This document shows, piece by piece, positions 7,114 to 49,800 of a DNA stretch of 64,000 nt. Below the pieces are notes generated by a model. That model was not told the DNA's origin. It worked only from the letters and a program-made list of their open reading frames with translations, and made no database searches. How positions within the stretch are numbered: position 1 is the first letter of the stretch; each line of letters begins with the position of its first letter. Position numbers and translations under genes: made by a program. Source of the DNA: Amoebophrya sp. A120 (lineage: Eukaryota; Protista; Dinoflagellata); contig CAJINV010000001.1 of assembly GCA_905178155.1 (NCBI GenBank), forward strand, positions 7,905,599 through 7,969,598. Direction: 5' to 3'.

Positions 7114-11447
<4,334 letters not shown>

Positions 11448-15600: not shown

Positions 15601-18600
15601 AGACCGCCGAAATCCAGTTAGATAAAAAGACGATTTCCATCCAACTGTGCCCGCCGGACCTGCTCCCGCCGCCCCCGAGGATGGACCCGCCCGGCATGCT
15701 GGAGCCGCCGGGCCTGGAGCCGCCCGGCATGGACCCGCCGCCGTCGCAGGCGGGCATGGAAATAAGCAGCAGCACTCTCGCCCCGCAGAATGTGATCCGC
15801 GGCAAAGAGCGTCCGCAATCACCGCCACCGCAGCCGCCGCCTGGACTGGAAGGGCTGGAAAACAAGCAGCCGCAGCATACGTTTAATAACGACCAGGTCG
15901 TAGTACACCGCACCAACCAGCAGCCACAGCCTTTTCAACAACAGCGGCCGCCGCCGGCGATTTTGCACACTTCGGCCGGTTTGCCAGTCCTGTCGATCGG
16001 GAATAAGAAAAAGCCCTTGCCACACACAATCCCGATCCCCAGCTCCCCGCCCCCGCCGATGCCCCCGCCACCGCCGGGGCTGCCCCAGCAGTTGCTCGCG
16101 CAACACCACCAGGAACAGCACCAGCAAACGGAGATCGAAATGGTGGTCGAGGAGCATAACGTCACTATCATCGATCCACCGGCCAAGACGGCTGCGTCGA
16201 ACATGCCCCGTAGTACCAGCACCGCGGATCAACATCGCCGAGTCACGTCGGAGGACCTGTTTCTGTCCCTCCCGACGAGTCCCCCGCCGACCATGCCGCC
16301 CCCAAGTGTGCATCAGATGGCTTTGTTACCGCGCAGCACCAGCAGAACCTCGACTGCGGGGGGCGGGAAGTCGTGTAATGGGACGACCACTAGCAAGAAC
16401 CAGAACGGCGGTTGTAACTCCTCCGCGACGAGCAACGTGACCGCTGGTGCGCAGCAAACGTCCACGACCTCGGTTGGCGTGACCACTACCACAACAACCG
16501 TGTCTTCGTCGTCCCAAAAAGAAAGTACAGCAGTAGTTGCAAACAACAGTCTGCTTCCCCCAACTGCGCCGCCGACCGGGCCTCCGGCGCTTCCGACGAT
16601 TTTGCCTCCGCCCTCGCTGCCGTCGACCTTGCCGCCGATGCTGCCGCCGTCGCTGTCCCCACGGCGCAGTCTGTCGATCTGCACTAGCCAAACGGGGGAT
16701 CTTCACGTGCGGTCGCGGAAGTGCACAGAAGCTGGCACTGTTGTTGGAGGCGGGTCCTCGTGTGGAGCTAGTAATGCGGGCGTTCAACCCGCCCTTGAAC
16801 AGAAGCAGCAACCTGAGCCGCCGCCGTTGATGCCGCTGCTGAATATGAGCAGCTTGACTGACCAGACCGGCATGAACAACACGTCCCTGAACATCAGTTG
16901 CGATACGACTGTGGTTGAGAAAGAAAGCAGTTGTAACGAAGACAGTTCATCCGGTGTTGTTGACAAAGCCGCAGACCACATCGGTTCTGGGGCGACGAGC
17001 GCGCAAGTAGTCACCGAGGGCAGCGGTGGAGGTTCTTACCAGCAAAGCAAAACTACGGGTACCACTACCACGTCCGGTGCCGCCGCAACCCTGCCCGAGG
17101 ACATCACGATTCGCGGAAACTACAATTTAGCTACGTTCGACATCAGTGTGGCCACGGAGGATTTTGTCTTTGAGAATTCCCGTTTGCTCCAGCTGTACAC
17201 CGACCTGCAACACCCGTACTTCGGGCAGCTGACGATTCTGATCAAACGGTACTTCAAGCTCGCGGGCTTGTGCGACGCGCACAGCGGGTTCTTATCCTCT
17301 TACAGTCATCAGTTGCTGTTGATCCACTTCCTGCAGCGCCGGCGATTGTTGCCCTACTTGCAGGACCCGGATCTCGTTGCGAAGTGGGAGAATGAGCGCA
17401 AAGACGCCAGGGAGGAGCTGGAGCGGCTGGAAGAGGAGGCCGCGGCCGCTGAGGCGGGAGAAGACAACGACGACGAAGAAGAGGATAGCGATCATAGCAT
17501 CGGGAATAACGGCGCTCCCCACTCGACCTGCGACTCTCCGAAAAAGAAGTCATCCTCCACGAACTTAGAAGTTGTAGTCCTTGGGCAACAGCAGGACAAA
17601 TCCACCTCTGGTGCCGACGACCAACGTGGAATGACTAGTAAAAAGGACCACGACGACCAGAAGAGGATGAACACTTCCGCGAAAAAGAAGCAGGATACGA
17701 CCCCGGACACCGCGTCGACGACGACGAGTCCGGATCAGGTGACTTTGAAGGAGAAAAAACATCACCTACTAGCGCCCTCCTCCCACCACACGACGACGAC
17801 CGCCAGCGGCGCGATTATTTCCGGGGAGCGCGGAGACTGGATGCGGAAAGAGTGGGTGGAGGAGGCGAAATTTGTGGACTGGAAGCTGTTCTGTCCCTGC
17901 GAGGACCCGTTGGACTACTTCCCGGATGTGCAAAAACTGCCCTACGAGGCTGGCGCGGACAAAGGTGGAAACAAGTTCGTGATGCCGGTGTTATACCAGC
18001 TGTTCTGGGACTTTTTGTGCTACTGGGCGCATTTCAAGCCCTTCAAGTTCATGGTCAGCATTCGTCGTCGCATCATGTTCTCGGACTGTACGTATCAGAA
18101 AGAGGAGTGGCACTGCGTGGAGACGGGGAACGTAGTGGGACCAGAAGTACTTCTTGCGGAGAAGAAAAACGCGTTTACTGGGGGCGGGGAGCAGCACAAC
18201 AATAATACCTCCATCTTCGACCAAATTGGCAACAGCACCCTGTACGGTGTGGGACTTTTTCTTTCTCCTGAATTTCAAAAGGTCAAATTTTGTGTTGAAC
18301 GGAAATGTTGAACTTTGCATGGGTAATATTAAAGAGTAGGGAACAAACTCTTGTTCATTCATTTCGACGCATTTCCTTCTCAGCCTGCGACACTGGACTT
18401 GCAGCGAAGTTTTGTAAAGTCGTGCATATAATGCAAATGCGCATAGCTCTGTTGACCTGAATATCTCAGGAGGATTTATTCACTTTCTGCCAGCATACAT
18501 GAAACGAGTCGTCGTCCTTTTTCGACAATGTCTGCGAGTCGAGCCAAGACGATGAGAATTGCAACTCCAGCGTATCCTCCAGTTCTTTTGGCTTGAAGGA

Positions 18601-20359
18601 GGAGCAGCAGGAGAACTTGCAAACCTTCGACATCGCAGGCACGAGTACCACAAGCGACCACACTAAAAACGTGCTGACTGCGTCGAAGCCTCCTGTTAAC
18701 AAACCGGTGAAGAAAAAACTTGTCAAGGCCTTTCGGTGTCTCGTGTCCGAGGAAAAGTCGAAGTTCTACTTCAAGATTGAAGATCCCTGCGAGCCCGGGC
18801 GCATTCTGGGCATGGTGGACTACAAGTTCCAGCAATGGCACGCGCACATCAAGCGCGACCAGGAGCTACTCGCGATTCATCCGTCGTTCATTTTCCAGGT
18901 GCTCAAAATGGAGCCCAGTCCGGAATTCGCGCCGAGCTTGGGGAGTACCACAACGACCAACATGCTGGGGACGAGTACTGGTGCTGGTGCAGGATTACCT
19001 TCATCCGCAGCCGGGAATAATCTTCACCATCAAGCTTCTGCAGGAACTACGAGTAATAACACAAACACGAATTCGACTTATGACCAGACCGCGCCGACGC
19101 TATTCGTACCGTTCCCCGCAAACCTTCCTAACAGCACGACTGCGAACAACGGCAATACGACTGGCGCTGCGAATTTCTCGATGAACCCGATGCACTTGCA
19201 GCCCTTCGCGAGCAGTTTTGCACAGTTAGGAACAACTGCAACTGGCACCACGAACAACACCTCCACCGCCGGTTCTGCTGCAACTGGGGTCACTACTACA
19301 TCTTCTGGTGGCGTCAACAATGCTGTCGATACCCAGAATGCTTTGCTTGGACGTACGATCTCGGCCACGTCGAACGGTTCCGTGGCGAGCTCGAATGCGA
19401 CGGCGAATGCGACGAACCAGGCTGCGGCCAACGCCATGGCCGCGATGATGGGAATGCAACAACTGCAGCAGATGAACGGTTTCAACATGTTTGCCCCACA
19501 ACCTCCCCAACAACAAGCTCCGGCAGCAACTAGCGGAACGTCGACCACGGGGGCTGCTGCGTCTACTGCTGCGAACGGAAATAACGGCAAAAATCAGCAG
19601 CAGCAAAGTGCCGGTGGTCAACAACAGGAGCAGAACAAAATGTCCTCGCAGCAGCAAATGCAGAACGCTTTCCACCAGCAATTCGCCCAGATGATGCAAA
19701 AGTCGTCGGTTTCCGCGCAGCAAACGGCGAACAGCAACAATTTCATGATGAGCCTGATGGCCCAACAGGCCAGCATGTTGATGAATAACTCGATGATGCT
19801 GAACCCGATGATGAACCCGTTGTTTAACCCCGCGGCTGCCCTCAGCGGTTTGAATAACCGGAATGGACCGATGAATTTCCCACTGCCCGCGGCGCCCATG
19901 CTGAACCCCTTTCTGGCCCCGGGCGCGATGCCGCCGTTCCCGCCAAACATGCCGCTCCCAAACATGGCCGCGCTGCCGAACCCCAATCTGGCTGCCATGA
20001 TGGCGGCGGCGAACTACTTCGCCAACGGAGGTGCTGCAGGAGGTGCAAATAATAATCCGAGTGCTGCTGGTGGTGTTCCCACGCACACCACTGCAGTTGG
20101 TGGACCTGGTTCCGGGATGATGGGTGCTGCGGGCAGTGCTGCGCCGCAGGGAGGTGGAGCTGCGCAAACTTCGTTTGGAGGTCCGACCAGTTTAGGCGGA
20201 CAGGTGGCAGGCAGCCAGGGTAGTTCGGCAGCGCAGGGAGGGGGCTTTGGTCCTAATACTCGCGGTATATCGTCGGCTGGGCCAAGCGCCATGGAAAGCG
20301 GCTACCATTCGACCAGCGGCGGTGGCAAGGCCAATGCCTGGTCGCCGCAGTACCAGTAG
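12655..20359 (+). CDS. Cid1/TUTase/non-canonical poly(A) polymerase family nucleotidyltransferase with long N/Q/G- and P-rich low-complexity regions
   Basis: LFGSCVNGSATNDSDYD (GS...DxD), ARVPILRC, FDISV (third Asp), GFLSSYSHQLLLIHFLQ and KIEDP (PAP-associated). Introns: introners at 13080, 13396 and 18243; GT-AG intron 14876-15040. Confidence 0.85.
13080..13341. mobile_element. Introner/MITE, family A1 (262 bp)
   Basis: ~30-bp TIR TATCAAATGTAAAAATGTCTGGGTCTGGAA; TSD TCATC. Excision +5 gives NVSSTTSGG. Confidence 0.95.
13396..13647. mobile_element. Introner/MITE, family A2 (252 bp)
   Basis: Same TIR as A1; TSD GCCCC. Excision +5 gives QHGPRGGTTN, in frame with ORF 13695. Confidence 0.95.
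18243..18497. mobile_element. Highly degenerate introner in the TUTase gene
   Basis: Left TACGGTG..CTCCTGA..AGGTCAA mirrors right TTGACCT..TCAGGAG..CAGCATA. Excision +5 (260 nt) joins the frames as GNSTLNESSSFFD. The TSD is no longer recognisable. Confidence 0.45.
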
Positions 20360-22003: not shown

Positions 22004-24987
22004 ATGTTGCAGCAGCTCTTCATAGGCGCTGCGAATTTTGTGGCGTCCGGAAAGCGAGGCGGCCGGGGAGATGACCTCTATGATTTCTACAACAGCGTGA
22101 ATCTTCTGATGGGTATCATGCTTCTGCTCTACGGCCTGAAGGGCGCCATCCGGGCGTGGCGCGCATGTTTGAAGTGCCGGATTCTGATGCGCGCCTTCGG
22201 ATTTTTCGCGCTGAAAGACCGGCAGTTGGAGTGGGATAAGAAATCGAAGGAAGAGAAAGCGGCCGCAACCAAAAATTCGGGGTCGTTTTCATCTTCTGCC
22301 GGCGATCTGAATAAAATGGCGGAAACCATCCGGCCGAGCGGCTACGGAGCAACCGGAACAACTACCACCGCGATGAACAGCAACAATTCTACGCGGCGCC
22401 GGGGTAGCACCACGCCGCCGGAGGACCAAATAACACAACAACAAAAAAGCGTAAACACGACCTCCGGCAGAGAAAGTTCCTTCCTGCGCCCCCGTTTGAG
22501 CCAAACGGGCCCGCCGACCGCTGAGGAGAAGGGGCAGTGCCTCCGGTCCATCTTGTCGTACGGCGAACTGCACGTGTCGGAGATGATGGCCGATTTGGAA
22601 GAGGCACCGAGCCACATCTGGCGCGGCTTTTGGCTGTCCGCCTGCGTGCTGTTTGTGTTAGTAAGGTGGCAGGACATGAACTATCTCTCCCGGGAGCTGC
22701 TGGACTTGTCTGCGGGGAGCGCTTTCGGCGCGGTGTTCCTGCCCAGCGTGGTCCTGTTTCGCTACCTGCTGGACGTGTTTCGCGGCTTTCTGCTCGTTTC
22801 CGGCCTCCTGTTTGCGGTGTTCATCCCGCGGGCCCGCAGGAAGGACTACTGGGTGTACGATCTGCCCGAAGACATCACCGACGAGGAGATCGATATTTTG
22901 CTGAAGTCCCGGAACGTGGGCTGGATTTCCGCGGACATCTGGCACGGGTGGGCGGCGGGCATCGCGGTGGCCAACGGCGGGATCAGCATCATCTGCTGGA
23001 TCTTCGATCTGTGGGCTCGCGCGACGATCGGCCTGGAGCCGTACGGGTGGATCGAGAAAAGGCGGGAGGCGTTGAACCTGACCGGCGCACCAGTCACGAC
23101 CGCGTCACTACCGGACGGGCAGATGATATGCAAGAAAAAAACAGTGTAAGTGTAAATTTGTGTTGCAGAACACGCAACAGAGTAGTTACACCTGTCATGC
23201 CAGACAGCCATGAAGCCCTCTTTTCATCTGTGTTGTGCTTTACATGACAGGTTTTCTCTGTCATGTGGGGCAAATGTGTGATGCTGTTCCTCAAAGAAAG
23301 TTACACCTACACACTTTTTTTTCTGGATAGATGACCCCGTTCCAGCAGTACAACCCGGCCACGCAGTGCGCGGGCAAGGTATCAACTGTAAAAATGTCTG
23401 GGTCTGGAAGATTCTGACACTTGTCATGCACGTTTTGCATGAGCCATGATGTCTGTGATGCATACCCTAGCAATACAGATTTTCTAAGGGCTTCGTGATG
23501 CCTATTCCGCATGACAAATGCCTTCTCAGCGTAGCAAAAATTGCATTCCCTTTGCTACTCATGCAATACAGATTTTTTTGGAATCCAAATGCAGCATCAC
23601 AAGTTGCATTCTTCCAGACCCAGACACTTTTGCAATCCATACAAGGCCTGGAAAAGCGATTTCTCCCAGTTCATGAAGTGCGCGCCCTACATGCCGGGGG
23701 AGCGGTTGTACTATTTGTTTCTAGCGGTCCGCGGGGTTCTGTGCGGGATGTTCGTGTGGGCGGTGGTGACGACGAACGCGAAGTTTATGCGGGTGGAGAT
23801 TGGCCAGACGCGGTTCTACCGCGGGCTGCGGGCCGAGGTGGCGATTATTAAGATTATCGCCTGGGAGTCCGCGTTCGTGGCGGTCGGGGCGTGGTACGTG
23901 CCCCAGGGGCTGTACGACTACCTGAACTGGGGCGGCATGGCGCCGCTGCAGATCTTACTCATCCTCTTCACCGCCTGGTACACGGTCTACATGGGGTACT
24001 TCTGCACGTGGTGCCTGCTCGACCTGTTTGTGGACTTCGAGTACATATCCTGTGCAAAAGTATCGTACTCGTAGTAATTGCTATCATGCATGACAAATAT
24101 CCCTTTTTAGGTGAATCAGCATTACAAATTCCATTTTTCTTCCTGAAAAAATTTGTGATGCAATTTATACAACTAATACGATACTTTTGCAATGCATAGT
24201 ACACCGACCGGCGGCTCGCCCAGAAGTTCGACCAGAGCTGGGTCCCCCACGAGAAGGAGTTGGCGGAGGCGCTGCGCTATCAAATGCAAAAATGTCTGGG
24301 TCTGGAAACTTGTAATGCTAAAAGTGAATGATAAACGTACTGCAATACGCAGCTATGCATAACAAATTTTTTTGGCTGCCATGTCTTACGTATTCCGCAT
24401 GGTAAGCTGCGTTTTTGCATGACAGGTCAGAGGGCCTTTCCGTGCCTATGCAACACAGATTCTCGACTCATGCCAGACAAGCATGACAAACTTGCATCCT
24501 TCCAGACCCAGACACTTTTGCATTTGATATGCGCGCGGTGCACGAGACACGCACCGTGCACCCGGAGCGCGGGCAGGCGTTGACAGACTTGTTGGAGCTG
24601 CCGCCGGACGAACTGGAGGTGAACCAGGTGTTGCTGTACAAAAACCGACCGAGCACGATGCCGGCACACGTGTTTCGCACGTCGAACTATGCAAATCTCA
24701 CGGCAGGTGGGTCGTCACCGAACGACACCATGCAACCACCTCTACCCGGGGACGGTACCACAGATGGTGCCGCCGTCGTCAGAGTCTCGTCGCACAAGGC
24801 TAATCGCAACAGATCTGTCGCCTCGACCGCGGCAGGCCCTCCGGGGTCGGTACCCTCGTTCGGCGGGATCGACAGCAGGACAAAGCGGCGGATGCACAAG
24901 GAAAATCCCTGGCTCGACGCTCCACTGATGCACGCGCTCACGCGGGGCGGCATCGATGGATACTCAGCAAGTGAGGAGGAAACGTAG
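22004..24987 (+). CDS. Polytopic membrane protein of unknown function; 5 exons, all 4 introns introner-type
   Basis: Many hydrophobic helices. ORFs 22004, 23541 and 24529 and two short intervening exons join in frame when each element plus one TSD is removed. Confidence 0.75.
23127..23329. mobile_element. Introner/MITE, A-tract TIR family D
   Basis: TATGCAAGAAAAAAACAGTGTAAGTGTAA ... TTACACCTACACACTTTTTTTTCTGGATA; TSD GATGA. Excision gives GQMTPFQQ. Confidence 0.88.
23380..23641. mobile_element. Introner/MITE, family A1 (262 bp)
   Basis: Closely similar to 13080-13341; TSD CAAGG. Excision gives AGKAWKSD. The TSD happens to allow a GT-AG reading. Confidence 0.95.
24046..24198. mobile_element. 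Introner/MITE, family B (153 bp)
   Basis: TATCCTGTGCAAAAGTATCGTA ... TACGATACTTTTGCAATGCATA; TSD GTACA. Excision gives FEYTDRRL. Confidence 0.9.
24278..24529. mobile_element. Introner/MITE, family A2-like (252 bp)
   Basis: Family A TIR; TSD TGCGC. Excision gives EALRAVHE. Confidence 0.93.
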
Positions 24988-28121: not shown

Positions 28122-28695
28122 AGTGATAAGGGGTGTGTGTGGATTTTATGAATCTCAAAAAATCACTTGCTGATCTATCCCTTTCCCGCAGGAGGACCTC
28201 TCTGCGTCATCAGCGAATAGGTATCATCTTCACTGCACAGCGAATGAACGACTGTAACACGTTGAGACCACGTGGAGCAGGACGAAATTGGTAGCCGTGT
28301 TCAACTTCAACTGGTATCTCTGTCAACAGGTTCGCGTTTTTTCTATCGCGAGTCCAGGTAGTCGGTGAAGTGCTTCATGCTAAGGAAGAGCACAGAGCAG
28401 CACGAGAGCAGACGTCAGGTTCGCCACTGAAAGGCTGTGCCTGATCCAACCTGATCAAGACCTGCATAAATGTGAATCATGTTGACTCGTGCACTTGATC
28501 TGGTCCCCGCAGCTCAACCCCTCTCGTATCGTACTAAGGCACTAATAAGAACAAGTTGGATTTGATTGATCTTTCCCAGTTGCTGTACCATTTACTTCGA
28601 AGTTTCACAAAAAACATAGAAATTTTCCTTTTTGTTATGGCGTAACGATTAAGAGTACCTCCGTCTTCAATTTTTGCAACCACGATACCAAAATC

Positions 28696-35500: not shown

Positions 35501-36638
35501 GGTGGCGGACTACCCGAACCAGCTGCTGATCGTGTACCAGCGGCACATATGCATTGCAAACACGGCTGGGCGGTCTGGAAGAATGCAAATTTGTATTTTT
35601 GCACGACATTTCGGATCAAAACAAAATCTGTCAATGCATGGAGCGGATCACGACCAGCACCACTTATGTCTGTCATGCGGAGTCCTGATTCCTCATGCTA
35701 CTATACGCGTCATGTATCCTGCAAAAAACTTGTGATGCGTGGTTGATTACTTCTGAAGGTCGTTTCTCATGGAGGGACCAGCAGTACAAGTTTCCAGATT
35801 CCGCCATATTTGCGACCCATAGCGCACCCGCGACGGCGCTATCGAGGCGGAACAACAGATGGAGCTCTACGCGCGCACCGCGAAGGACGCCGCGGTGTGG
35901 CACAAGGCGATGAAAATTTTTCTCCAAGCCTCGCAGCAAGAAGCCTACCGGAAGAGTGACGAGTATGCGGAAATGCTGGAGCGCGAACGACGGGAGATTC
36001 TGCAGCGGGACGTGGCCATTAACCGAAAAACAGACGAACAACAGCACGAATTGGAGGCCATGCTGCAGGAGAGAAAAGGAAATCCACAGCCATCGAAAAC
36101 AAATACCGGTAGCACAGGTCGACGAGGGACAAGCTACGGACAGGTGCGGCAAGTATACGAACGAAATCGCTTTTTCTTTTGTTGTGTTATGCGACAGTTC
36201 TTCATGAAATATGAATCTACTGATGGTTGTTCAAGATTGTGAGGTATCATTGTCGCTGAAGCAGGTAGAGATGTATGATGCTGATCCCGCTGCGTGCGCT
36301 GTAATTGGGATAGTTTGTGGAAAATATTGAAACGGATTACGTAACACGCCACGACTCCTGTTCCCGTTGTCGGCTCTTGCAAGATGTTAACAGTGAGCTT
36401 GTAAAATGAGTAACGACATGCCCAGGTTTCTTCATCTGCAACTGCAAGTGCAGCTGCAGTGCGAAAGTCTCGTGGGAGCAAGGAGGACGATGTCGCGGAC
36501 GGATTGACCTTTGGGAAAGTGATGAAAGGCGTGACCGCGAATGCGCCCCCTGGGCCAAACAGCAAGCCGCCAGTTGTGCGTCCAGATGAAGAGAGTCCCG
36601 CCGATGGCGGGACCAGCGACGATGTTGCGGTGACGTGA
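32576..36638 (+). CDS. PH-like domain protein (paralog 2) with long low-complexity N-terminus; 7 exons
   Basis: Four introner introns (33858, 34458, 34780, 35548) and GT-AG introns 35207-35347 and 36144-36425. LRYFHVSRKRDEWVLDWY...DDRGTL...MELYARTAKDAAVWHKAM aligns with the 30115 gene. Confidence 0.72.
33858..34109. mobile_element. Introner/MITE, family A2, opposite orientation (252 bp)
   Basis: Internal sequence is the reverse complement of 13396-13647 and 63359-63610. TSD GCACT. Excision gives MDQHYRDYD. Confidence 0.95.
34458..34668. mobile_element. Introner/MITE, family D
   Basis: TATCGTGGGAAAAAAGTGTTACAGTTACACA ... TGTGTTACTGTAATACTTTTTTCTTGTGATA; TSD CTGGA. Excision gives HDLDEQAK. 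Confidence 0.88.
34780..35040. mobile_element. Introner/MITE, A1-like, opposite orientation (261 bp)
   Basis: Family A TIR; TSD AGGCC. Excision gives QQKAIQSL. Confidence 0.9.
35548..35821. mobile_element. Diverged family A introner
   Basis: TATGCATTGCAAACACGGCTGGGCGGTCTGGAA ... TTCCAGATTCCGCCATATTTGCGACCCATA; TSD GCACA/GCGCA. Excision gives YQRHTRDG..QQMELY. Confidence 0.8.
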
Positions 36639-37865
36639 AAGCTTTTGGTTTTTTATTCAATAGTTGTCTTATGCAAATATGTTTTTCATCTTTCTGACAT
36701 TGATTTCCTAGTAATCTCCCACATATGAATATGTTGGTGGTCGTGGTGCGCTTGTTGTACTAGGAGGCTCAAAGTATTTGCAATATTGTTTACAAGGTAG
36801 CGAAAATTAAAGGGCTAGTTCAGGAGTGCCTCCTTGTACTGATTCGCAGGATCATGATGTCGATCACATTCATTGTCCCCCAGCCTTCCTGGACAGCTAC
36901 ATAGTTTTGTAGTAGAACTCCGTAGTTCAGTAAACCGACCTACCTAGCACCAGTTGTGAAGTTTTGGAGCATATGACCATCATGACCACAGTAATGATTG
37001 TTTTGTACAAAAGTTTTTTGACAGAAAGTTACATACTCGATGATTGAAGTGCAGCGAACTAAAGACACAGTTTCTTGTAACGTTCCGGTTCGTAGTACAG
37101 CGGGTTTGCGTTTGTGTCGAGTGATTGATGTCCGAAATTAATGCATCAATGAGTGGTAGAGGAGGCTTTCACAGAGTCGTAACAGCACAGGCGCCGAGAG
37201 GTTGTGGCTGCTATCGGTCTCCCTTCCAACGCTCCGTAGTATAAAAGACCCACTCATGATTGCCAGGGCGGGAATGAAGGTGAAGTCTTCTGTTGAGGGA
37301 TGAAGGTGCGGTAGGACGAGCGGTAGCCGTTTTCAAAATAAAGTGAACACTGATACAAGTAAAATATCCCGAGGACCGCAGCTGCCTCGATTGCAAAGGC
37401 GGCGAAGAGCGTATCTGTTGGTGGCTAGTAAAGGGCACACTATTTTTACTTAATGAGTTAAAGTGATTCCACCACCGGACATGATTTTGATATGAGAACT
37501 GCGCCGCGCATTATTTGGAGGACTGCAGTTGCCGGCCCAAGCCCAACAAGGCGCTACAGGCGGCGTATAATTTGCTTACGCGAGGAGTGTGCAAAAACGC
37601 TGCATAGCTCTTGAGCAAGGGATGGGCAGGAAGAAAAAGAAGAAAGCACCAGCAGGACGCCGACGTCGTCCTCGAGACGAGGAATCCTCGTCCGGGACCG
37701 CTCGGTCGAGGAGGCGCGGTTGCGGAGGGGGAGTAAGTGGAGAACAGTTTTAGAAGGAATAAGCTGTGCAAGGATAAGAATATCAACATGTCATTTGCTT
37801 CATCTTGTTCTCTTGCTGCTTCGACGCCGTCCCGGTCCAGCTAGGGGTTCTTCGTCGTGAAGAGG

Positions 37866-40800
37866 ATGTTCGCGCAGCGCTATAGTGGCACACGACGCGA
37901 ATCATGCCGCGGCAGCAGCCGGCGGGGGTCGTGTTGCCTGGTTTCGGCCGGCAAGAGCGGCAAAGAGTTTTCGCTGGTCAGATTTCTTGTTGTACTCCAC
38001 CAGCTCCTTCTTTCACAACTTACCCCAATAGACGCAGGGTCTGCACCAGCGCCGCCTGGCGAGGTTTCCCCTCCTTCCTTCGAAGGTGCGGCCGCGGAGG
38101 CGAGTCCGAGCTTCGTCATGGAATGGAATCCACGGGGTCGGGATGCAGTGGCCAACGCCCCCTTATTATCCTCAGTAAAATGAACGTGGTCCCCTTCACA
38201 TGCATAATCAAGATGTTGGGAATCAATTGTGCACACACAAACACAAACCCACTAGTTTTGGAACTTCCGCACGACAATGTAGTCGTGTCAGTTTAGCTAA
38301 TGCAGCAGCCGCACCCTATCCTGATTACTTACATATACAGACAGCATGACAAGTTCATCTTTCCCGTGAGAATGAGAAAATGGCTTCCATGGGGAGCTGC
38401 AGCTGTGTGAGAGCTCGAGATCTTATGGGCGTTCTGATTTGCATGAAAAATGCGGGGTGGGACGTTTTTACTGAGGAGAATTGTACGAGCGGCTCCGGGG
38501 CGGCTACTACGCGGAGCTACCAAACATGGCCGGGATGCAAGTGCGAGTCTTACCCGGCCCGGTTCCCAATGTGGTCACAGACTCAATGCAAATGAGCTGC
38601 GATACCCGCGAACAGACGTTGCTGCATTCGCGCGTGGGTCTCCGCTACGCAGGCCGGTCGCAGACGGGCCCGGAGGGTGCTCGGGGGAGAGCCATACGCC
38701 TCGTTTGTCTGCTCATGCGGCTCCCGGTACGCATAGTGCAATCAAAAGTGTGGTCTTTGGCGTAGAGCGGAAGGGCATAGTAACAAGAAACTGCTTTTGA
38801 TATACTTTGGAGCACAATATGTATGAGCGTCGCTCCGCTGTGCGACGCAAGGTGGTGGGTCGTGCATCAATCGATTCGAAAGAGAAATACTATTTCTATA
38901 TGCTCCAGTACCAGTACTGCCGCGACAATAATCTCTACGGCACGCAGTCCGACGCTTGTTTTGCAGTGGATACCTGGGAGAGGACGAGGACGGCAGCGAA
39001 TCCACTACCTGGGATGTGATTGAGTTTGAAATGGACCGCAAAGGCAGCACTTTGTACGACCAGGCGAGCAACGTCTACCTGGATCAGAAAGCCGCGGACC
39101 CGGAAAGGATGCGCAACGACGATTATGATAACGACGGCGCGAAAGCGTCAGGCTCAGGCAGTCAGGAGGACTTGGAGGAAGAAGATCCCCTTGCGCGGCC
39201 GCGGCCCCGGGGGCCCACGAGTACGACAACGGGCATTGTGGCGCCGACCGCTTACGGGTTCCGCGGACAGGAAGTGGGCGAGCAGCAGCAGAAGGAGGCT
39301 GTTGATCGCGTAATCGCGAAGAAGTGGTCCCTCGGCGAAAAGAATCCCTATTTCTGCTCCTTCGGCAACGCAGACCTGGTGCGGGCGAACCACGTGGACG
39401 ACCTGTCGCGCATCAACATCCGGTATCAAACGCAGTTATTTCATCTGGGTGTGGAAGAAAGCGGGCGCTAGTCATGCAGTTTTTGCATGTGCCCGCCGAC
39501 GCCGAGCATGTTGTTCAATGTCCAGCGCATTCAAGGTGAAAGCCTTGTACTCATATCCAAGGTGCAGTATTTGCATCTGCGCGAAAGTCTGGACTGCTCG
39601 CCGAGCGTGACAAAAAATTCTGCGGAGGCCTCTCCATGCCTAGTCTCCATGACAAATGTTGCCCTCTCGTCGTCCTGGAGACAAAAATCACACGGCCTTT
39701 GCTGACTAGGCGACACAGAATTTTGGACCTCTTCCAGAATCCGCATCAGAAGTTTGCATCCTTTCAGTAGACCTCCCAGAACTATAATTTGCAATGCATA
39801 TGCGTTGGATCTGCATCGGGTCCGAGCGCCTGATCCGGAAGAACACGTTGGGCGAAATCAACACGCGAGAGCAGTGCCGGGTTCCTCACATGACCTGGTA
39901 CTCTGGTCTGGCGCGGCTCCGGAACATGGCGCCCTTCACCGGGCTGCAGGTGCCCCCCGAGACGGGGTCGGAGCGCCAACGCGCCTATCCGGGCTTCGCT
40001 TTCACTGAGTCATTGCGGATTTCGATGCGGCCGGTGCGGATGACCACAACGGGGGGCGAAGTAATCGTCGATCCTAGGGAACAAGGTGTGGCGGATGTTG
40101 ACACCTTCTTGAGCATGGAAGGCAAGAGTGGCACTAGCATATCGGCCACGAAAGAGCTCTACGATATCGTACCGACTAAACTAGAAGCGGAGGATTGCAC
40201 CTACGTGATAAGGCCCGGCATGTGCATGCCGATCAAACCGTGGCCCGAGACCGGCGTCCCCGTGCGGTGCGTCGAGGTGCCGCCGGAGGGGCTTCGCGAC
40301 GCCGGGATGGTGACCGTGAATGGAGCCGTGTGCACAAAGGTGTGCAACGCGAGCGACCGGTGCGTGGCCTTCGAAGTCCTGGAGCCCCGTCATTGCTGCC
40401 TCTTTCGGAACCCCGTCTACTCCCAAGACGATGCGGCCGGCGCGCGGGTGCCCGCGGGGTTTAAGGCAAAGGCAGCTGACGCCGGTGGTCTTTCTCCCTC
40501 CGCCACGTCGCAGCGTCGCTGTTATTTTCGGCGATGTGGCCTGGTTTCTGCCGGTTCGCTGCCCGGAGCGTACGCACTATATTACCACGAGCTGTCGGGG
40601 ATGATGTTCGTCTGGATCTCGAACCTGCTGCAGCAGAGATACGGCTTGGGGCGGCGCAGCCGGTGGTACCCCCTCTTCAAGAGTCACGGGATAATCGGCG
40701 TCAAGGGCTACGAGAGGGAGCTCGTTTGGCTGCAGCGCATATCCATGGCAGATTTGCTCGGGTCTCGAGCAGATAAGTGAACAAGATGGCTGGAGGTGTT

Positions 40801-43800
40801 ATTACGTTGTTTTTGCCTCCCACCGAGACTTTTGTCGACAAGGTTTCGCGACGACAAATCAGGGTGTCGTTAATTGAGTCACCCGCCTTGGTCGTGCTGA
40901 GTAGAGACACCAGAAGAAAAAAACGCGAATTTTCTGCGCATTTTGCTTGAGGAACACCTTAGAATGAAAGAAGGTCTCCACTTCTCTGCTAAACCTGATG
41001 CATTTGGAATGAATGATGGAACGGAGGCCTGTTTCGAATGGACTGGAATGACGCGGTGCGGAGAAAGACGTTACTGGGGAAGTGCGGCTATCCTGTGCAA
41101 ACACTTCCACACTACAAAGCATCATAAAGTACTTAGTTTCATCTCGTAGTTTTTGGTTTTCGTAAGTGTACTTCTCGTGCGGAGGCACTGCTGAGCCTTG
41201 GATATAGTATATGTCTGTTGAAGCAGGGCCATCAACTCTCCTACGCAATAAAAAACTGCGACGCGCAATCAGAGTTTCAATTTCTTGACCTGCCCTTCAA
41301 AAGAAATTCTAATCCGTCGAATACATTGTCCTTCAAAAGAAATTCTAATCACCATGGGGGCGGGTCGTTTTTCTCAGGATGACCAGTCGAGCTTCTTCGC
41401 TCGCCACTGCTTTCGGACGCTTGCGCAGGAACGCGCGGGACGTGGTTTTGTGCCGATATCCACTGCTGCAAATACCTTGATATGGGCCGGACAGCGCAGT
41501 TTGTGATTGCTTGTTTGTATTTTCACGAAGGCCCCAGAGACCACGTCGGGAGCGAAGCTTGTGCATGATGAAGTTTTATTGAGATAGTAGGCAGCAGCGC
41601 CTGTTGCGCGCGACCGTTTTTTTTCCCGCTCAACAAACAGGTAGCACTACCTTCCAACAGGCATCTTCGCAGGGTGTGGACGGATGATGCGTCAACCCGA
41701 GAATGACAATGAAGTTTCCTTGCAATTTTGAGTTGAGATGACCGAAACTTAAGGGAGTATTTGCGATGGATGACTGGACGTGGTGAACAACGTTCCAGAG
41801 ATCGGTAGATGTTGCCAACAGTACCTAGAGGCCAACGGCGGTCTCCTGCTCACTCGCGCCACGGATATCCCAGTACACACCGCCCTAGATGAGCAGGGAC
41901 TTTCTTCGTCGGCGAACAGCGGAGGCAGTTCGAGCTCCGGGGCCAGCGCAGCTGCTGCTGCTTCGCAGGAGTCCAACTTGCTTGGCGGCTCGGAGCTGGA
42001 GCGAGCGTCCGCCCCGGGGGGTGTCACGTGCGAGTCGGTGTTGCAACGCGTCGGACCTTTGTGGAGGGAGATGCAGGAGGGGGTCCCGCTCCACTTGTTG
42101 AAGGCCTTATTTCTCTCGATCACGGAAGACGCTGTGACCGTCCTCGGAGCCTATCTTTACATGACTCAGCCGCAGAATATGAATAACTCCCCCGTTGGTG
42201 GTAGTGCAGTTGTTCCACCTGCTGAGACCACCACGACCGGAGGTGGCGCCTCCTTCGGAGCCCCTGCTATCGCGGCCGCCACACGAGAATGGAAGGGGCC
42301 CCTCGATTACGGTTTCTTCGAGCACGCACGACGGCTAATGCTTTCCATGAAAGCGTACGTGGTCTCCGACAAACCGGCTTCGTCCTCGGAAGGCTCCAGA
42401 GACGCGCAGGCTTTCGGGGATGACTCTCTGACGCTGCGCCGGATGGCGGCGACCCGCGTCTGGCCCCTGCTGCAGCAGCTGCTGCGCGGGTATCTAGTGC
42501 TGATCATCTTGCGCGCCCCGGCCATCTGGTCTCCAAGTGAGCAAGACCATTGGGCGTTCACGCAGAGGGTCGAGCTGGTGCGGTGCAAGGGCTCGGGACG
42601 CTTCGCGGCGGCCGACGGGATTTATGGGAGGCTGAAGGAACACCATGTGGACGAGGAGGTACACCGGTGAAAATTTACGCCCCCACGCCTGCTGTCCTCT
42701 TGCAAAGCCTCTGCGTCGTGTCGAACCAGCGTTCTTACCGGCGCTGGCCTTCCGTGGGCAGGTAGAATGTCCTGCATGAGGATCTTTCTTCTAGCAGTGC
42801 TGGCGCTTCTGCTATGATTTTGCCACGGGCTCCATGAATATGCTGCCAGATGAGTAGTGCTAAGTATGTAATCATGATTAATATGCGGCGGACCTGCCAG
42901 AGCATTTCTGCCACTGCCGGAACTGCCAGAAATAACGTTTGCGCAGAAGTTGCATCTTGTTTTGCAACACAAGGCGACTACAATTTTGTCCCCTCCAGCA
43001 TTCAAAAGAAAGCTCTACGTACATTGCGTCTTGTTCTGTGCTGAGGGGTGGGGACGTTTATTTTGCACCGGATAGGATGGTGCGCCGCACTACCCGTCCT
43101 ACGACGATCTGCCCTGGGCCGCCGCGCTGCTGCAGAAAATGAAGCAGGATAAGCGGCCGGGGAATCCGGCGGAGGCCTACTATCGCATGGACGTTGAGCG
43201 TCTGTCCGCGGAGGATCTCGATGCGGCCGCTTTGATGACAGACGAAGAGGCAGGTGCGGCGTCGGCGCCCGGTGACGGACGCAATAGGCCGCCTAGTCAC
43301 TCGTCTTCTTCATTCGTGGAGCCTGATTTCGGCCAGCGCAGAGGAAGACGGGGACGGGAGAGGGACTCCACTCGGCCTGCTCGCGTGCTGTTCACGCCGG
43401 GGCAGCGTTGGGAGATTCAGATGGAGAAAATGACTTTGCGGGAGAACACCGGGGCAGCGTCCACTTCGAGACTGGAAGACATTTGGAACTGGCGGGACAT
43501 CAAGTGTACCACCACGAGCGATGGCGGCGCGAGCAGCGCTGCGAGAACGGAATGTCGGGAGGAGGAGGGTGGGGAAGCTGAATCTACGAAGCCTGTACAC
43601 TCTTCCACTTTCCTGCACCAACTCAACACAAGGACGACGCAGGTGCGGTGCCACCCTCTTACTGGACGAGGCCGAGTAGACGCGGAGCAAGGGGCGCGGT
43701 TGGACCTCTTGCGCGAGCGGTCGGACCTTCTGCGGCACGTGATGGCAGTGTTGAAGGCCGGTCGGTGGTACATCGGACGCATCCTACGAAACAGCGCGTC

Positions 43801-46800
43801 TTCAAAACGGAGTACTTCTAGGCCGAAGGCGAGCCGCGTCGACGCGGCGGGGGCTGGCGGAAACCAACCGGTGTCCTCCGTGCAGGGCAAGGGGGTAGCA
43901 GCAGACATCGATTTGAACAATCTAGCACAAGGCAGCGCGCTCCGGGCGGATATGGAACAGGAAGCGGCGCGCAGACGGTACCTCGAGCCTCTTCTGCACG
44001 AGGAGCAGACTGCCGTCGAGGAAAAGGAGCGGAGACTGGGGTAAAGTCATTTTATTTTTCAATCATATGAGATTTTTGTTTGTTGCCTGCGAAGGAACAC
44101 ACATGCTGTTTTTTGCCTGCGCCGTTGCTCAGCTCGTCTCCGTTGCTGAGACAGAAGTAGCTCAGGAGAGCAAGAAAGGTAGTAAGCGAAATGCCTTTTG
44201 TTCAAAATAATCTCGATGCACTACATCTACAACTACACCAGGGAATTACTGGGGTCCGAGTTCGCGCGCAGCTTCTTTGGTTTCGATGCGCCGAGTGTGC
44301 GGGAACTTTCTGCCGTTGCGGTGCGGCGATATTTGACGTTCGTGGACTGCATGCAAAGGGAGTTGGTGGCTAGCTGCCAAATTGAAGAAGAAAGTCCGCC
44401 TAGCGTTGAGTACCTATGCAATGCAGAAAGTGTTGTAGCGGAAATATTCTTTACTAGACGCAAGTAACCACAGCACCGGTCGGTGCATGACGCGTCTGTC
44501 TGCGTTTGTGATTTCTTTGCGCAAAGATCAGATGGTTTCAGTAGATCTCGTACCACCAATGTCTAATAGACAAGGTGCACGAATAAACTTCGTTTCGGAA
44601 AAATAAACATCAAGGGTGGAGGAAGAATCGATGCACTCAAAAACTTTTGCAGGGCATAGATTTCTTCTTACAGCCGGAATCCGGGTGCTAGAGGGCAGCC
44701 GCGGGCCCGGCCCCTGTTGGTGCAAGACGCGATCGCTCCGACCGGCGCGGCTAAGGGAGATCCGGCGTCAGGCTGGCTAGAGAGCGAGGCACACGATCGC
44801 GTGCAATACGCGTCGCTTGATCCGTTTCAAGCGCGGGCGGACTTCGAGCGTCTCGTGGCGGCGGAATGGGCGTCTCTGGGCGACGCCGGCGACTTGCTGA
44901 AGCATCTTCCCGCGCAGTGCTATGTCGAGCCGGGTCTCTCTGCCTCGCCGGACGATCTACGTGAGAATTTTTTGAAGGTGAGGAGAAAGACGTCCTACGG
45001 ATTAGTCAACCGGGCCGACCGTGTCAACGAGGTATCCACTGCAAAAGTATCGTACTCGTATAAATGCAAGTCTTGCAACATTACAAATCTTGTTCCCAAG
45101 GCAAATCAGTATGACAAATTCGTTTTCTCATGCTGAGAAAATGCGATTTATACTAGTGCGTTGCTTTTGCAGTTCATACGAGGCACAGGAGACGAATTTC
45201 GTACTGATCCGGGTTCGGATGCAGTTCCAAATCTGCCCGTCGTGGTTGGCGCAGGACCCGGTGCGACGATTCTGGTGGTTTGGGTCCGTTCCCCTGCTGC
45301 CCGAGGTGCAGGGCGTACTTTCACTGGCGTTGCTGGGTCGCGAGATGGTGCCCAATGGGCTGGTCTTGCTTGCGCGCTACTTCCGATACCTGCCCCTCTC
45401 GGAGATGTATCACCGGGTGGCAAAGTTGGTACAGAGGGACCGAAAGATGTACCCCAAGTATGGGCTTCCGGCCGTGACCGGCCGAGAGGAGTGGGTACAG
45501 GAAGCCGGTGCGGTGGCGGTGCGCCTTGCGCGGCTGGGAAAGCGTCTCGAGGATAAGGGGGGCCTTTTTTTGGCCGACGAGCTGGCGCTGCAGTCGGCAA
45601 TCACTCTGGTGGACTACAATAAAGTGTGTACCGAGGCGGGGGCCGCCGGTTTTCCTGTCACCGATGAGTCAGGAAACAATTATGCGGCTGCGGACCCTAC
45701 TGCGACCTCAGGCAGGACCAGGTACAGCAGCGACACTAATGTGAGAGACGATGCGATGAACAGTGCCGCGGCTTCTTCCCCGTCACAGGAGCGTCGTGTG
45801 CCAGTAGAGGAAGGAGATGCGGACGACCTTCTGGCCAAGTGTTCGACAGTGTACTCCGAATGGATCCGGACCATTTTCTATGAGAGTGCAAAACTCGTTC
45901 TCCCCGTCATCAGCGCTGTTTGCCTGACCACAGTCTGAGGGCCGCCCGCCCAAATAGCACTTCTTCACTCCGCGGGTGGATATGCCATGCAGAAGCAGCA
46001 CAGTCTGTTTATGTCATGCGGAAGCTGTGTGATTCAATCGTTTTTGTTGCTGCTGCTTTTGTTGCTGTAGCAGATAGAACCTACCATGCAATTATAAATG
46101 AAAGGCAGGGGTGGAAATTGTGATCTCTCATACTTTATCAACTGCAAATATGTCTGGGTCTGGAGACTTGTGATGATGAATTGTGGAGGACTGAAATACT
46201 TCCCAATGCAGCCAAGCATGACGAGTTTGCCGCACACTTTCTCATGCGCAGTCGGCATGAGAAACTGCGCTTTTGTCTAATGACATCAAAAGATAAAGAG
46301 GGCGTCTTTTTGCTAGTCATGCAACACAGATTTTACAAGAATGCAGGACTACTAGCATTACAAGTTCCATGCTTCTAGACGTATTTGCAATGCATATATT
46401 TTGGGCAAGAACTTTCCGCGGATTCACAACGCAAACCTGGTTCCCATCCCAGGCACCATGGACCTCCAGATCGTCCTGCAAGTGCAGACGCGAACGCAGG
46501 CCATGGTCACCACCATGGGCTGGAAAGAGGCGTTCGTACGGTTTGCAGATGTGCTGGTTTCCCAACCGGATGCGGATTTTCAGCGGGGTACGGTTTTATC
46601 CGTGGAGCCATCGGGAGAGCGGCTAGCGGTCAGCGGCTCCTGCGACGATGGTGAGGAGGGCGGAGTCCTGCTTGTTGCTCTGCCGTCATTATCGCACAGA
46701 GAATTTTTTTGATTCTTGGACCGCAATACCTACCCCTTTCCGGGACACAGTCTGTTCCCCAGATTTTGTTCTTTTGTACGGAAATTATAGAAGATCGGGT

Positions 46801-49800
46801 AGCTCTTTGCACGTACATTCTGTTTTACTACAAAAACGTGCATTCCGGTGCTGGAATTGAAAGTATGTTCTGATTAGCATTAATAAAAATTCTCTGTGTG
46901 ACATTGCTTCGTTGCGCAAGGCGGTCGGCAGGAAGCGTCCAAAAGGATTGTGCGGATGCGATCGCCCTGCGTGCGGTCACTGCATTGGGAGGCTACCGGT
47001 CTGTTGGTGGAGGATCTCTCAGGCGGGCTTCGAAGTCTGACCCCTCCGGCCGAGAATCCCACGTGCGGGGCGGCAAGTGGCGACCCGTCGGGCGACAGTC
47101 CGCTTTCTGGAAGGCTGGACCAAACAGGGATTTGTTCTGCAGAGCCTGTGCGGTTTCCGGGGGTAGGTCGCCCGCTAGCGGAAGAGGAGGCAGAGGTGAA
47201 TCCGGGCTTGCGGCCCTACCACCGCATTTGGGAGCAGACAGCGACCGCTACGTTTCGCTGCGCTCGTGATTCTAAGTTTACCTGCATCTCCGCCGGAGCT
47301 CGGGTTGCGCAGTTGTATTATCGCATCACGCACTTGAATGACGTTTCCTTTCCCAGCTGGGGCACGGTGCGGATACGGGTGCAAGTTAACGACTGGGCCG
47401 AGATGCAGTGCAACGTTGAGAAACGCGTTTACTGCGATCGCAGTGGGGATGCCAAGAACTTATGCACACGTGTAGAAGAGAGGGCGGAAATGTCGTTTGG
47501 GGACGTGTACGAAACCGGCGTTGGTACTATTACTTCAAATACGAACTCTGATATGTTGAATTTTGTTTAAGTATCGCCCGGAGCTACGCTCAGCAGCTAC
47601 TTTCTGAAACTGAGTCACTCGCACTTGCGTCTGCGCGAGTGGAAAAACCGGGCACGAGCACTGATGTTGGGCAGCACAGGATGAGGTGAATTATATTCCG
47701 ACCCGAGCCAGTCATTTTGCTGGCCATCCATTTCCGTTTGACCGTGCTGCCAGGGCAAGATCGATTGTTTGAGTACTCACAGATTACGAACTATCTCAAC
47801 TTCAGATCTCGACTCGAAAGGCCGATCGTTCGCGTGGCGCGGTCTTCGCGGGGGCTTGATGAGTCGGGTCGACGGGCGGCCGTCCATGCGGCAGCTGAAG
47901 GTGTTCTGGCAGGTGTTTTCGATGCTGGACGCGTGTGGCATGAGGGAGGTGTGCACGGGCGGGTTTGGGCCCGAATGCCCTATGTGGATGTCCCGAGCGT
48001 TGACGGAAACGACGGCGCATCCGCAAGAGCGCGACACGGTGTTCGTCGAGTCGCCGGTGCAGCAGTGCGCCCACCTCGCGGACGTTCGCTCCACGAAGGT
48101 GGTGGATCAACTGGTTGTTGTACCCGGGGACCTCCTGCATATCAGCTGCTACCCCCGTGTATCCACGGCAGATATGTCTGGGTGGGGAATAAGGTTGCGA
48201 AGCAAAAAAATTGCGAATGGTGTGCGCACTGCGATACGCAGCCAAGCGTGACAAGTTTTTGAGCTGCTATGTCTTTTAGTATCGGCATGGAACTACAAAT
48301 TAATAAATTGCGGCTTTGCATGACGGACAAGAGGCGCCTTTCCTGCTCATGCGTCACAGAGTTAAGTAGAGAAAGAGTCTCCTGATGACAGACAAGTAGG
48401 ATGACAAACTTTCACTCTTCCAGACGCAGACAGATTTGCAATGCATACCGTGGCGGCTCCCCGGACGAGAGCAGCGGCAGCACCATAGTGGAGATTCCCG
48501 AAGTCGACTTCGTTCCCGTCGCGGGCGCCGGCGAGGACAGCAAACTCGCCTTCATGTACGAGTATCAAACTTCTACCACAGATAAGCGCACGACCTCGTT
48601 GAAGTCTTCCGCCACGCTGACACTGCAAGGAAAGACGACGACGTTCGCAAAGGCCGCGTCGGACCCGAATGGACTTGGCTTTTGCGAAGAGCAGCCTCCG
48701 GCGTTTGGGGCGCGGGGGCAAGGAAACTACAATCGCGGGACGTCCCGAGAAGGTGCAAGCACCTTCGTACCGCGGCCACGGTGGTCGTCGTACCAGCCCC
48801 GCGATTCCGCGGCCACGGAAATTTCGAACACCGGCGCAGTTCTCGCACAGAAGGAACTTTCACCGGCGTCGGGCGGTGGATTTTCCGCCAGGACAAAGGA
48901 CGACGGGGGCAGCGTATCCTCGTCTTCGTCCCAGGGCCAGAGCCGGCCATCGCGCCTGGTTTTTTTGCGCCCCAGCGAGCAGCCCGCGTGGCGCGAGAAG
49001 CAGCGACCACAAGACCGCATGCACCTGCGAGTGCAGTGCAGCGTACTGGACACCAGCGAGCAGCGCGCGCCACTGCGGCGCATGCTCTCCCAGTCACTGC
49101 TCACCTTTCTCACCATGAAAGACCGCTGCATTCGTCGCCCACCTGCAGAGGAACCTCCCGACCTGCATCGCGGACCCGCTATTCGTATCCCACGCAAAAG
49201 CGTTCTCAGTTGCAGTCGTTTTTTGATGTAAGAGTAGGCAGGGCGAAGGACTTAGCAATCCGAATATAGTACATTCATCGAGACAATAAGAGCCGCAAAG
49301 TGCCAATTTTTGCCATGCATTCGGGCCGTCGTTAGTAGTACATCATGCCTGCGACTGCAGAACTTTTGCAATGTACAAGGTCCTACGTGCAGGCAGCAGA
49401 TACCGGGGAGTACGTGCCCCTTTCTGAGCTGCTGACGGGACAGGGATTGGGGCTAAAGGTCGCCGAGGACCTGATTCGTGCGGACTCCACGCTACTGGAT
49501 TCGAGCGGGGGCAGTCGGGAACGACCCGAGGGAGGACTACTGGATTCCGCCGGCGACGACTCCGGGCTTCCCCCGTTCGGGGGCGGGTTGAAAAGCGTGT
49601 CGCTGTTGCGGCACTACCGACAACAGAAAACCGCGGCGGTGCGCAAGTCGACGTTGCACGGGGTCTTTTCCTTCGCGTTCGAGCAACCGCTGCACGAGCA
49701 GCTGGAGCCCGGGCAGCGGTACACGCTTTCCTGCGAACTCGGTACCCTGCTCCGCAGCACCTTTTCCACAAGGAGCGCGCCGTCGAGCGAGAACGAGGAC

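Follow-up and report, generated by a model that had tools for sequence, protein, structure and literature searches.

The window analyzed here is a stretch of 64,000 nucleotides (nt) from the genome of Amoebophrya sp. A120, and the features under study are short elements that interrupt its genes. The host was confirmed with MCM7, an exon of which is 100% identical to the A120 protein P0001 (A25 homologue, 74%). The G+C content of the window is 53%, and the genes lie on the + strand, broken up by elements of 146–415 nt (Table 1). The elements were removed from transcript-like contigs together with exactly 5 nt, in a single register that was independent of microhomology, and the intron bases U+2, A+3 and A−7 were invariant (intron positions are counted forward from the first base, +1, and backward from the last, −1).

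The elements start with TA(T/C), finish with an (A/G)TA-like end, and have 5-bp direct repeats on both sides. In total, 29 were counted, with target-site duplications (TSDs) identical at 5/5 positions in 14 (young copies) and at fewer positions in 15 (old copies). The 14 perfect copies of the original prediction and its TSD scores for 11 degenerate copies were recounted as stated; the degenerate copies 40740, 41089, and 46690 and the outer element 45879 had been missed. The features described for A120 introners were found: inverted repeats (IRs) of 8–20 nt starting from TAT, seven looser bases and an A run, a direct repeat (DR) over the boundaries, and families. So were those of miniature inverted-repeat transposable elements (MITEs), namely terminal inverted repeats (TIRs), a TSD of fixed length, no coding capacity, and multiple copies; elements 33858-34109 and 13396, for instance, are 92.7% identical and lie in opposite orientations. 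The elements are the already published introners, or non-canonical introns, of A120 (PMC7789003), and they derive from MITEs, with TAT...ATA ends and a 5-bp target duplication. A cognate transposase was not found in A120 according to the passages of PMC7789003 covered (the literature cited in this text was covered in part).

Splicing was read from transcript-like contigs of runs X1–X4, which come from one sample and whose RNA status was guessed. The regions compared with contigs were 30500-50400 (X1, X2, and X4; the raw-read run X7 gave 0 reads) and 7000-18800. The contigs lacked the 10 canonical GT-AG introns as well as the elements, and the long pieces carried no other letters, so the contigs behave like spliced transcripts. 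With the joints, open reading frames (ORFs) of 866, 2289, and 3203 codons were restored; at MCM7, the join agreed with the spacing in a homologue (GGVLTNTMRY in P0005).

Removal register of the elements

The joints listed numbered 28, of which 17 belonged to elements and 10 to canonical introns; one (33889/34069, side 26, within element 33858) was dropped, as it derives from another copy of the family. With one inferred joint, there were at least 18 element joints. All 17 simple element joints removed exactly the element plus 5 nt. When slide ranges were compared, a start 1 nt before TAY was permitted in 18/18 element joints and was the sole value common to all. The intron thus extends past the element by 1 nt at the left TIR and by 4 nt at the right TIR (−1/+4). 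The −1 start was the only one possible at 18243, 44415, 49186, and 41089, where microhomology was zero; it marked the upper end of the allowed range at 39424, 41457, and the composite intron, and the lower end at 7637, 38167, 40740, 42660, and 46690. The joints of 7637 and 18243 were predicted in advance from the 30500-50400 data, and both matched to the base. The mRNA retains TSD positions 1–4 of the left copy and position 5 of the right copy, and at 38728 it carries the base of the left copy at the mismatch.

The original prediction had derived the +5 offset of 11 degenerate copies from reading frame, which left +2 and +8 in doubt. The transcript joints exclude both, and the register is fixed. 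The removal of element plus 5 nt was exact in nine of these copies (7637, 18243, 38167, 38728, 39424, 41457, 42660, 44415, and 49186), and the three additional old copies also obeyed −1/+4; 46136 was not a stand-alone intron, and element 35548 had no joint among those listed. No variable offsets were seen at mismatched TSDs.

Junction microhomology is dispensable, since four joints had no slide at all (41089 by the inferred joint) and 7637 ignored a longer repeat: use of a 6-nt direct repeat there, which lies out of step by one base, would take 199 nt and shift the frame, and 197 nt were removed. The elements are hairpins between direct repeats, and an artefact or DNA event, in which reverse transcriptase switches templates across hairpins at direct repeats or homology drives DNA excision, would suit that architecture as well as contigs that are RNA only by guess and from one sample. 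However, such events are ruled out by the joints, as had been proposed, since four have no microhomology and the repeat at 7637 is unused. The same contigs, moreover, lacked 10 canonical GT-AG introns, the joints restored long ORFs with an MCM7 join that fits homologue spacing, and two other runs contained 0.97–0.98 of the unspliced words. An origin of this kind is extremely improbable.

A GT-AG fit was absent at any slide in 17/18 element joints. Element 45033 reads GT-AG at the −1/+4 cut and nowhere else. Its intron is made GT-AG by the TSD CGAGG, and similar cases may lie behind the 15% of canonical A120 introns for which IR and DR were reported.

Element 46136 was inserted 3 nt behind element 45879-46132, in the 4-nt acceptor overhang of the outer element, and the contigs skip both (525 nt). 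The exon frame has three stops before 46134. The 525-nt product could come from stepwise −1/+4 removal or from removal in one step, because the junction recreates ATA-N4. The interval 45878-46402 can be described as a nested (stwintron-like) non-canonical intron.

Table 1. Genes, element introns, and further elements of the window (window coordinates; identity of the two TSD copies as matching positions of five)
Feature	Coordinates	Strand	Details
MCM7 gene	7114..11447	+	introns: 7 canonical GT-AG, 2 element; the 860-aa P0001 lies whole within the spliced ORF
Element intron in MCM7	7636..7832	+	element 7637-7828; TSD 2/5; joint 7635/7833, 197 nt, slide 2, 4/4 runs
Element intron in MCM7	9867..10150	+	element 9868-10146; TSD 5/5; 284 nt skipped
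Gene with poly(A)-polymerase/nucleotidyltransferase-like domain	12655..20359	+	hosts elements 13080, 13396, 18243; one canonical intron 14876-15040
Element intron	13079..13345	+	element 13080-13341; TSD 5/5; 267 nt skipped
Element intron	13395..13651	+	element 13396-13647; TSD 5/5; 257 nt skipped
Element intron	18242..18501	+	element 18243-18497; TSD CCCTG/CATGA 1/5; ends GTAC...ATA CATG; joint 18241/18502, no slide, 4/4 runs
Perfect-TSD elements	23127-23329, 23380-23641, 24046-24198, 24278-24529, 26556-26824	+	sequence only
Perfect-TSD elements	33858-34109, 34458-34668, 34780-35040	+	sequence; no joints among those listed
Predicted intron	35547..35825	+	element 35548-35821; TSD 4/5; sequence only; open coding-like frame after +5 join
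Large gene	37845..51843	+	3203 codons stop to stop after splicing; introns: 13 element, 2 canonical (44041-44241, 47524-47805)
Element intron	38166..38483	+	element 38167-38479; TSD 3/5; right end AGA; joint 38165/38484 (run X1)
Element intron	38727..38976	+	element 38728-38972; TSD 4/5; stem core shifted 2 nt; joint 38725/38976
Element intron	39423..39804	+	element 39424-39800; TSD 3/5; weak arms; joint 39420/39803, allowed starts −3..−1
Element intron	40739..41019	+	element 40740-41015; TSD 2/5; right end ATG; joint 40738/41020
Element intron	41088..41385	+	element 41089-41381; TSD 1/5; joint 41087/41386, no slide, inferred from record coordinates together with sides of 68/69; open frame restored
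Element intron	41456..41776	+	element 41457-41772; TSD 2/5; stem core shifted 3 nt; joint 41454/41776
Element intron	42659..43078	+	element 42660-43074; TSD 4/5; stem core shifted 1 nt; joint 42658/43079
Element intron CT...TT	44414..44662	+	element 44415-44658; TSD 1/5; joint 44413/44663, no slide, 3/3 contig runs
Element intron	45032..45182	+	element 45033-45178; TSD 5/5 (CGAGG); joint 45026/45178, slide 6
Composite intron	45878..46402	+	elements 45879-46132 and 46136-46396; joint 45872/46398, 525 nt
Element intron	46689..46907	+	element 46690-46903; TSD 2/5; right end ACA; arms 14/16 paired; joint 46688/46908
Element intron	48159..48451	+	element 48160-48447; TSD 5/5; joint 48154/48448, slide 5
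Element intron GT...GT	49185..49381	+	element 49186-49377; TSD 1/5; right end ACA; joint 49184/49382, no slide, 3/3 runs
Perfect-TSD element	63359..63610	+	30-nt perfect TIRs; sequence only

Terminal motifs, copy age, and arm pairing

Among the 18 element donors, T+2, A+3, and Y+4 were each present in 18/18, and +1 was free (G9 C5 A2 T2). The 10 canonical donors of the same genes had T+2 in 10/10, A+3 in 8/10, and Y+4 in 8/10, and the element donor N-UAY therefore agrees with the canonical GUAY from +2 onward. The ends of canonical U2-type introns were otherwise not seen, with G+1 in 9/18 and a 3′ AG in 1/18 (45033), and the acceptor showed no dinucleotide preference. An A was present at −7 in 17/17 simple element introns (background A 0.26, p about 1e-10), and it was retained even in three cases where its partner +4 was C.

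Relatives of the elements were sought in 151 loci (406 kb) of a related assembly, picked by the TIR of the main family and hence enriched for it. Relatives spanning at least half of the element length were found for 14/14 perfect-TSD copies and for 1/15 copies with a lower TSD score (46136), and the other old copies were singletons within these loci. The age series of the original prediction was borne out to that extent. Arm pairing dropped with TSD identity (Watson-Crick pairs in 16, 29 elements; Spearman 0.59, p = 0.0007), as did the predicted pairing of the first three positions (Spearman 0.80). The TSD pairs of the 12 spliced old copies differed at 34/60 sites. A drift of these 12 toward GT-AG was not seen (AG 0/12, G−1 7/12, G+1 6/12). 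One copy in the related loci (L070:3899-4180), which belongs to the 9868 family, has 16/16 perfect TIRs and a TSD identity of only 2/5. The mismatch may come from an imperfect insertion, a local deletion, or an error of assembly, and TSD identity cannot always serve as a clock.

In the old copies, +2, +3, and −7 were changed at 0/36 sites, as compared with 9/36 for their partners +4, −6, and −5 (Fisher p = 0.002, with the grouping made post hoc), and six of the nine changes break pairing.

The original prediction had suggested that the cut may lie at a fixed distance from the base of the stem. The offset is constant; the measurement from the stem is not borne out, as the cut tracks N-UAY and A−7. 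The +2:−5 pair was predicted with P > 0.5 in 12/14 young copies as opposed to 1/12 spliced old copies. In 38728, 41457, and 42660 the stem core is off register by 2, 3, and 1 nt, respectively, and the cut is still at the motifs. In 4/12 (18243, 38728, 39424, and 40740) pairing of the left arm with the right arm is no stronger than with 20-mers from the element interior. Likewise, the hairpin ends were said to persist: positions 1–14 keep more pairing than neutrality would leave, as detailed in the next section, but arm pairing falls with the TSD. The hairpin likely brings the ends together rather than acting as the ruler.

Compensatory substitutions between the TIRs had been suggested as a test. 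Left-right covariation was rejected as proof of selection on RNA, because TIR families are born complementary, and it was replaced by counts of G·U and A·C and a neutral simulation. G·U and A·C numbered 14 and 17 in the first eight pairs of the 29 window elements and 17 and 25 in 62 locus copies; the terminal triplet of old copies had A·C 5, G·U 3, and other 1. G·U did not exceed A·C in these counts, and the sign expected from selection on RNA pairing was missing. Three young elements (23380, 24046, and 26556) have a perfect TSD and arms mismatched at positions 4–8, and the 14 young copies together have 27/70 mismatched sites at these positions, which suggests that active families use differing TIR variants at each end.

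For a check in the related loci, joins were compared by a coding model that had been trained on the window's three genes, with a terminal filter of 5/6 matches. A join of +5 (mod 3) came out best in 17/19 decided old candidates (123 examined) and 45/49 decided young ones (212 examined), and 0/15 reversed-sequence candidates passed. Among the locus candidates passing the filter, A−7 was present in 62/62 and T+2 and A+3 in 61/62. A strand was given to 97 of 205 perfect-TSD copies by a caller that was right for 22/27 window elements and 18/18 at the margin used. In the orientation count (98 stranded of 206), 28 and 41 of 69 matched copies lay in the two orientations relative to the inferred gene strand, which would place all signals in the TIRs. 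TSD-4 locus candidates chosen by core score alone were set aside as contaminated (44 null hits against 288).

Side observations on the genes were as follows. The canonical introns of the window (7281-47805) are 158–282 nt long, start with GTAY, end with CAG in 9/10, and have little pyrimidine tract; AAC often lies a few bases upstream of CAG, which suggests branch points very near the acceptor. The product of gene 12655-20359 is large and of low complexity with an MTPAP-like/nucleotidyltransferase domain, possibly a TUTase or a non-canonical poly(A) polymerase. The large gene had no Pfam match in the seven exons tested, and an Rfam scan of the window gave 0 hits. The neighboring genes at 30590-31230 and 35170-35950 have a similar domain by eye (…YF…KKDEWVLD.Y…) and a similarly placed canonical intron, and element 35548 interrupts only the second. 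An EF-hand-like C-terminal exon was read by eye at 6040-6303, and the membrane protein encoded at 60761-61741 carries a C3HC4 RING finger.

Mechanism of removal

We consider it moderately probable that a relaxed U2-type spliceosome reads N-UAY and cuts 7 nt from the invariant A, assisted by the hairpin. A spliceosome with loosened G+1 and AG requirements would take out the element plus 5 nt. The left end, N-U-A-Y, would be read as the canonical donor G-U-A-Y, and the 3′ cut would be fixed 7 nt from the invariant A, either a candidate branch nucleophile or a base read by a protein. Pairing of the outer ~14 nt may join the ends early, possibly in place of U1, and would then be unwound. With the motif at both TIR ends and a 5-bp TSD, removal of a new insertion would leave no scar, whichever way the element faces, and the TSD and the distal arms would afterwards be free to decay.

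The candidate branch point at A−7 is the weak step of the spliceosome model. The branch-point motif near the 3′ end of introns is YURAY. A U two bases before A−7 was found in 5/17 only, and the full branch context in 4/17. Canonical introns have A at −7 in just 5/10, and a fixed A−7 common to them was rejected in view of AAC-like motifs at varying distances. Further points weigh against a cut set by motifs in a spliceosome. One doubtful old locus candidate has C+2, and in the unfiltered set of 97 young stranded copies, a weak test with only seven terminal changes, two fell at the sites otherwise invariant (L029 at +3 and L063 at −7, both known from sequence alone). The transcript contigs, too, share their single sample and guessed RNA status.

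The remaining points concern pairing, and they bear on an alternative in which the spliceosome or a helper protein would dock on the paired TIR ends and measure from the terminal helix, tolerate mismatches and bulges, and cut 1 and 4 nt outside U+2:A−5, the invariant bases being helix contacts and not a branch point. Decay in the arms is slower over the outer 14 nt than in the distal part or in the TSDs. In a neutral simulation scaled to TSD decay, with indels ignored, the old arms had 26 mismatches against 39.7 at positions 4–8 and 21 against 42.0 at positions 9–14 (p ≤ 0.0005), an effect that shrank and lost significance when a lower divergence was assumed and that may reflect shorter TIRs in old families. 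Positions 1–3 had 9 mismatches against 20.5, and positions 17–30 fitted neutrality (102 observed, 99 neutral). Complementarity to the own partner persists in old copies, with 7.67 of 13 positions paired compared with 5.93 for shuffled partners (p = 0.0005), which is partly ancestry. The right end is the best or near-best partner of the left arm in 8/12 spliced old copies, and at in-register positions 4–16 of old copies G·U was 14 against 6 A·C (p = 0.12; gapped, 6 against 7). Helix measurement would also give the same register as the motif rule wherever terminal bases align, and it would suit the lack of a canonical branch context at −7. On the other hand, the terminal +2:−5 pair is predicted in only one of the 12 spliced old copies, and A·C is as common as G·U in the terminal triplet, the first eight pairs, and the loci. 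A closing stem was missing in 4–6/12 old spliced copies and was never at (1,4), in a pre-mRNA folding test so noisy that even young copies put the stem base at (1,4) in 1–2/5. Measurement from the helix is unlikely on this evidence. The stem-guided spliceosome of the original prediction survives in a helper role, as the outer 14 nt look constrained, and not with the hairpin as a ruler.

The original prediction had also named tRNA-type and IRE1-type cleavage-ligation, which was not supported. In this alternative, a nuclease independent of the spliceosome (tRNA-endonuclease-, IRE1-, or RNase III-like) and a ligase would read the hairpin ends and free the intron as a circle or a linear molecule. 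Such a pathway would need neither G+1 nor AG, and pathways of this kind have been proposed for the nonconventional introns of euglenids and diplonemids. IRE1-type substrates (HAC1/XBP1) have CNG before the cut, in the loops of two separate hairpins, and bulge-helix-bulge substrates have paired exon flanks and a 4-bp helix between two 3-nt bulges, in which the cuts are made. Here, however, CNG precedes both cuts in 2/17, and the cuts lie outside one long-range stem. The flanks are direct and not inverted repeats, which would leave a bulge-helix-bulge no helix on the exon side; the outer pairs predicted differ freely from copy to copy, and no scan aimed at that structure was made. Moreover, from +2 on the 5′ motif is that of the canonical donor, and element 45033, which reads GT-AG, keeps the same register. 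From the literature, U1 was reported as undetected in A120 (PMC7789003), and the TIR-bounded introns of Euglena use motifs at fixed spacing and give circles, with other factors suggested (PMC12501133); against this, the TIR-derived system of Fritillaria is attributed to an adapted U2 spliceosome, in the parts of these sources covered. Cleavage-ligation is unlikely.

A bolder version of the favored spliceosome model is tentative and on the doubtful side: a spliceosome rewired to work without G+1 and 3′ AG, for which the TIR would be a two-way cassette, a donor when on the left and a branch A 7 nt from the acceptor when on the right, with the donor pairing in cis to replace U1. If true, any TAT...ATA element with a 5-bp TSD would be a scarless intron in either orientation and in any target, even the acceptor of another intron.

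Known systems and significance

The A120 introners of PMC7789003 (Farhat et al. 2021) share with the present elements the TAT IR, 3–5-nt repeats, a length of about 240 nt, families, and a proposed hairpin. In the passages covered, more than 60% of A120 introns were non-canonical with no clear splice signature, the sites were variable relative to the hairpin, the border position was unknown, and U1 was undetected, with nearly all spliceosomal proteins present. Here, by contrast, a single register, the N-UAY donor, and the invariant A−7 were resolved through copies with decayed TSDs. Table S4 of that paper already has T at +2, in all nine predominant A120 and all nine predominant A25 site pairs, uncommented in the passages covered; as the A25 IR starts with TTA, A120 and A25 may share an N-U-A donor.

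The −1/+4 register, N-UAY, and A−7 were unreported in the literature searched, including the texts of PMC7789003, PMC12130899, PMC11282704, PMC12005148, PMC11453091, PMC9860276, PMC13326754, and PMC12621601, in the parts covered; the figures of PMC7789003, Roy 2023, and Henriet 2019 (Current Biology) were outside the scope. With that coverage, the elements, hairpins, and direct repeats are already in print, and the fixed register, the donor-like N-UAY, and A−7 appear to be new. The addition made by the window is the age-series test, in which microhomology is dispensable, the stem decays with its outer part constrained, and the cut follows the motifs if the stem shifts. The removal of A120 non-canonical introns, which make up about two thirds of its introns, is treated as an open question in the covered parts of PMC7789003 and PMC11282704. 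One register together with three invariant bases would fix intron borders genome-wide and would explain harmless invasion of any coding sequence. If the spliceosome does the removal, a living cell can do without the G+1/G−1 and AG contacts, which are considered universal in the second step.

The comparisons below hold for the covered parts of each source. Euglena introns (Nomura et al. 2025, PMC12501133), with the code 5′-N3CDG-/-CH′GN5-6|R, are alike in MITE-like TIRs, direct repeats, free terminal dinucleotides, and complementary motifs at fixed distance. In contrast, the present introns have UAY at +2..+4 and A−7/ATA ending at −5, and the 5′ motif of Euglena does not coincide with the canonical donor, as the present one does. 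The Euglena code did not fit the window, with C..G at +4/+6 in 1/17 and a purine as the first exon base in 10/17. Entamoeba invadens, diplomonads, parabasalids, and some yeasts (bioRxiv 10.1101/2022.06.08.495308) likewise have a 3′ cut at a nearly fixed distance, about −8, from an adenosine; however, they retain GT-AG and AYURAY, whereas here there is no AG and the upstream U is present in 5/17. The introners of Aureococcus, Symbiodinium, and Florenciella (Gozashti et al. 2022, PMC9860276) are also DNA-transposon insertions turned into introns with one TSD copy discarded, but they carry canonical sites or co-opt them from the TSD, whereas any TSD sequence is accepted here. Fritillaria borealis (PMC11282704, PMC13326754) likewise has TIR/TSD-derived introns in place of GT-AG, attributed to an adapted U2-type spliceosome; it keeps preferred ends (AG-AC, AG-AT) and U1, whereas in the present introns +1, −2, and −1 are free.

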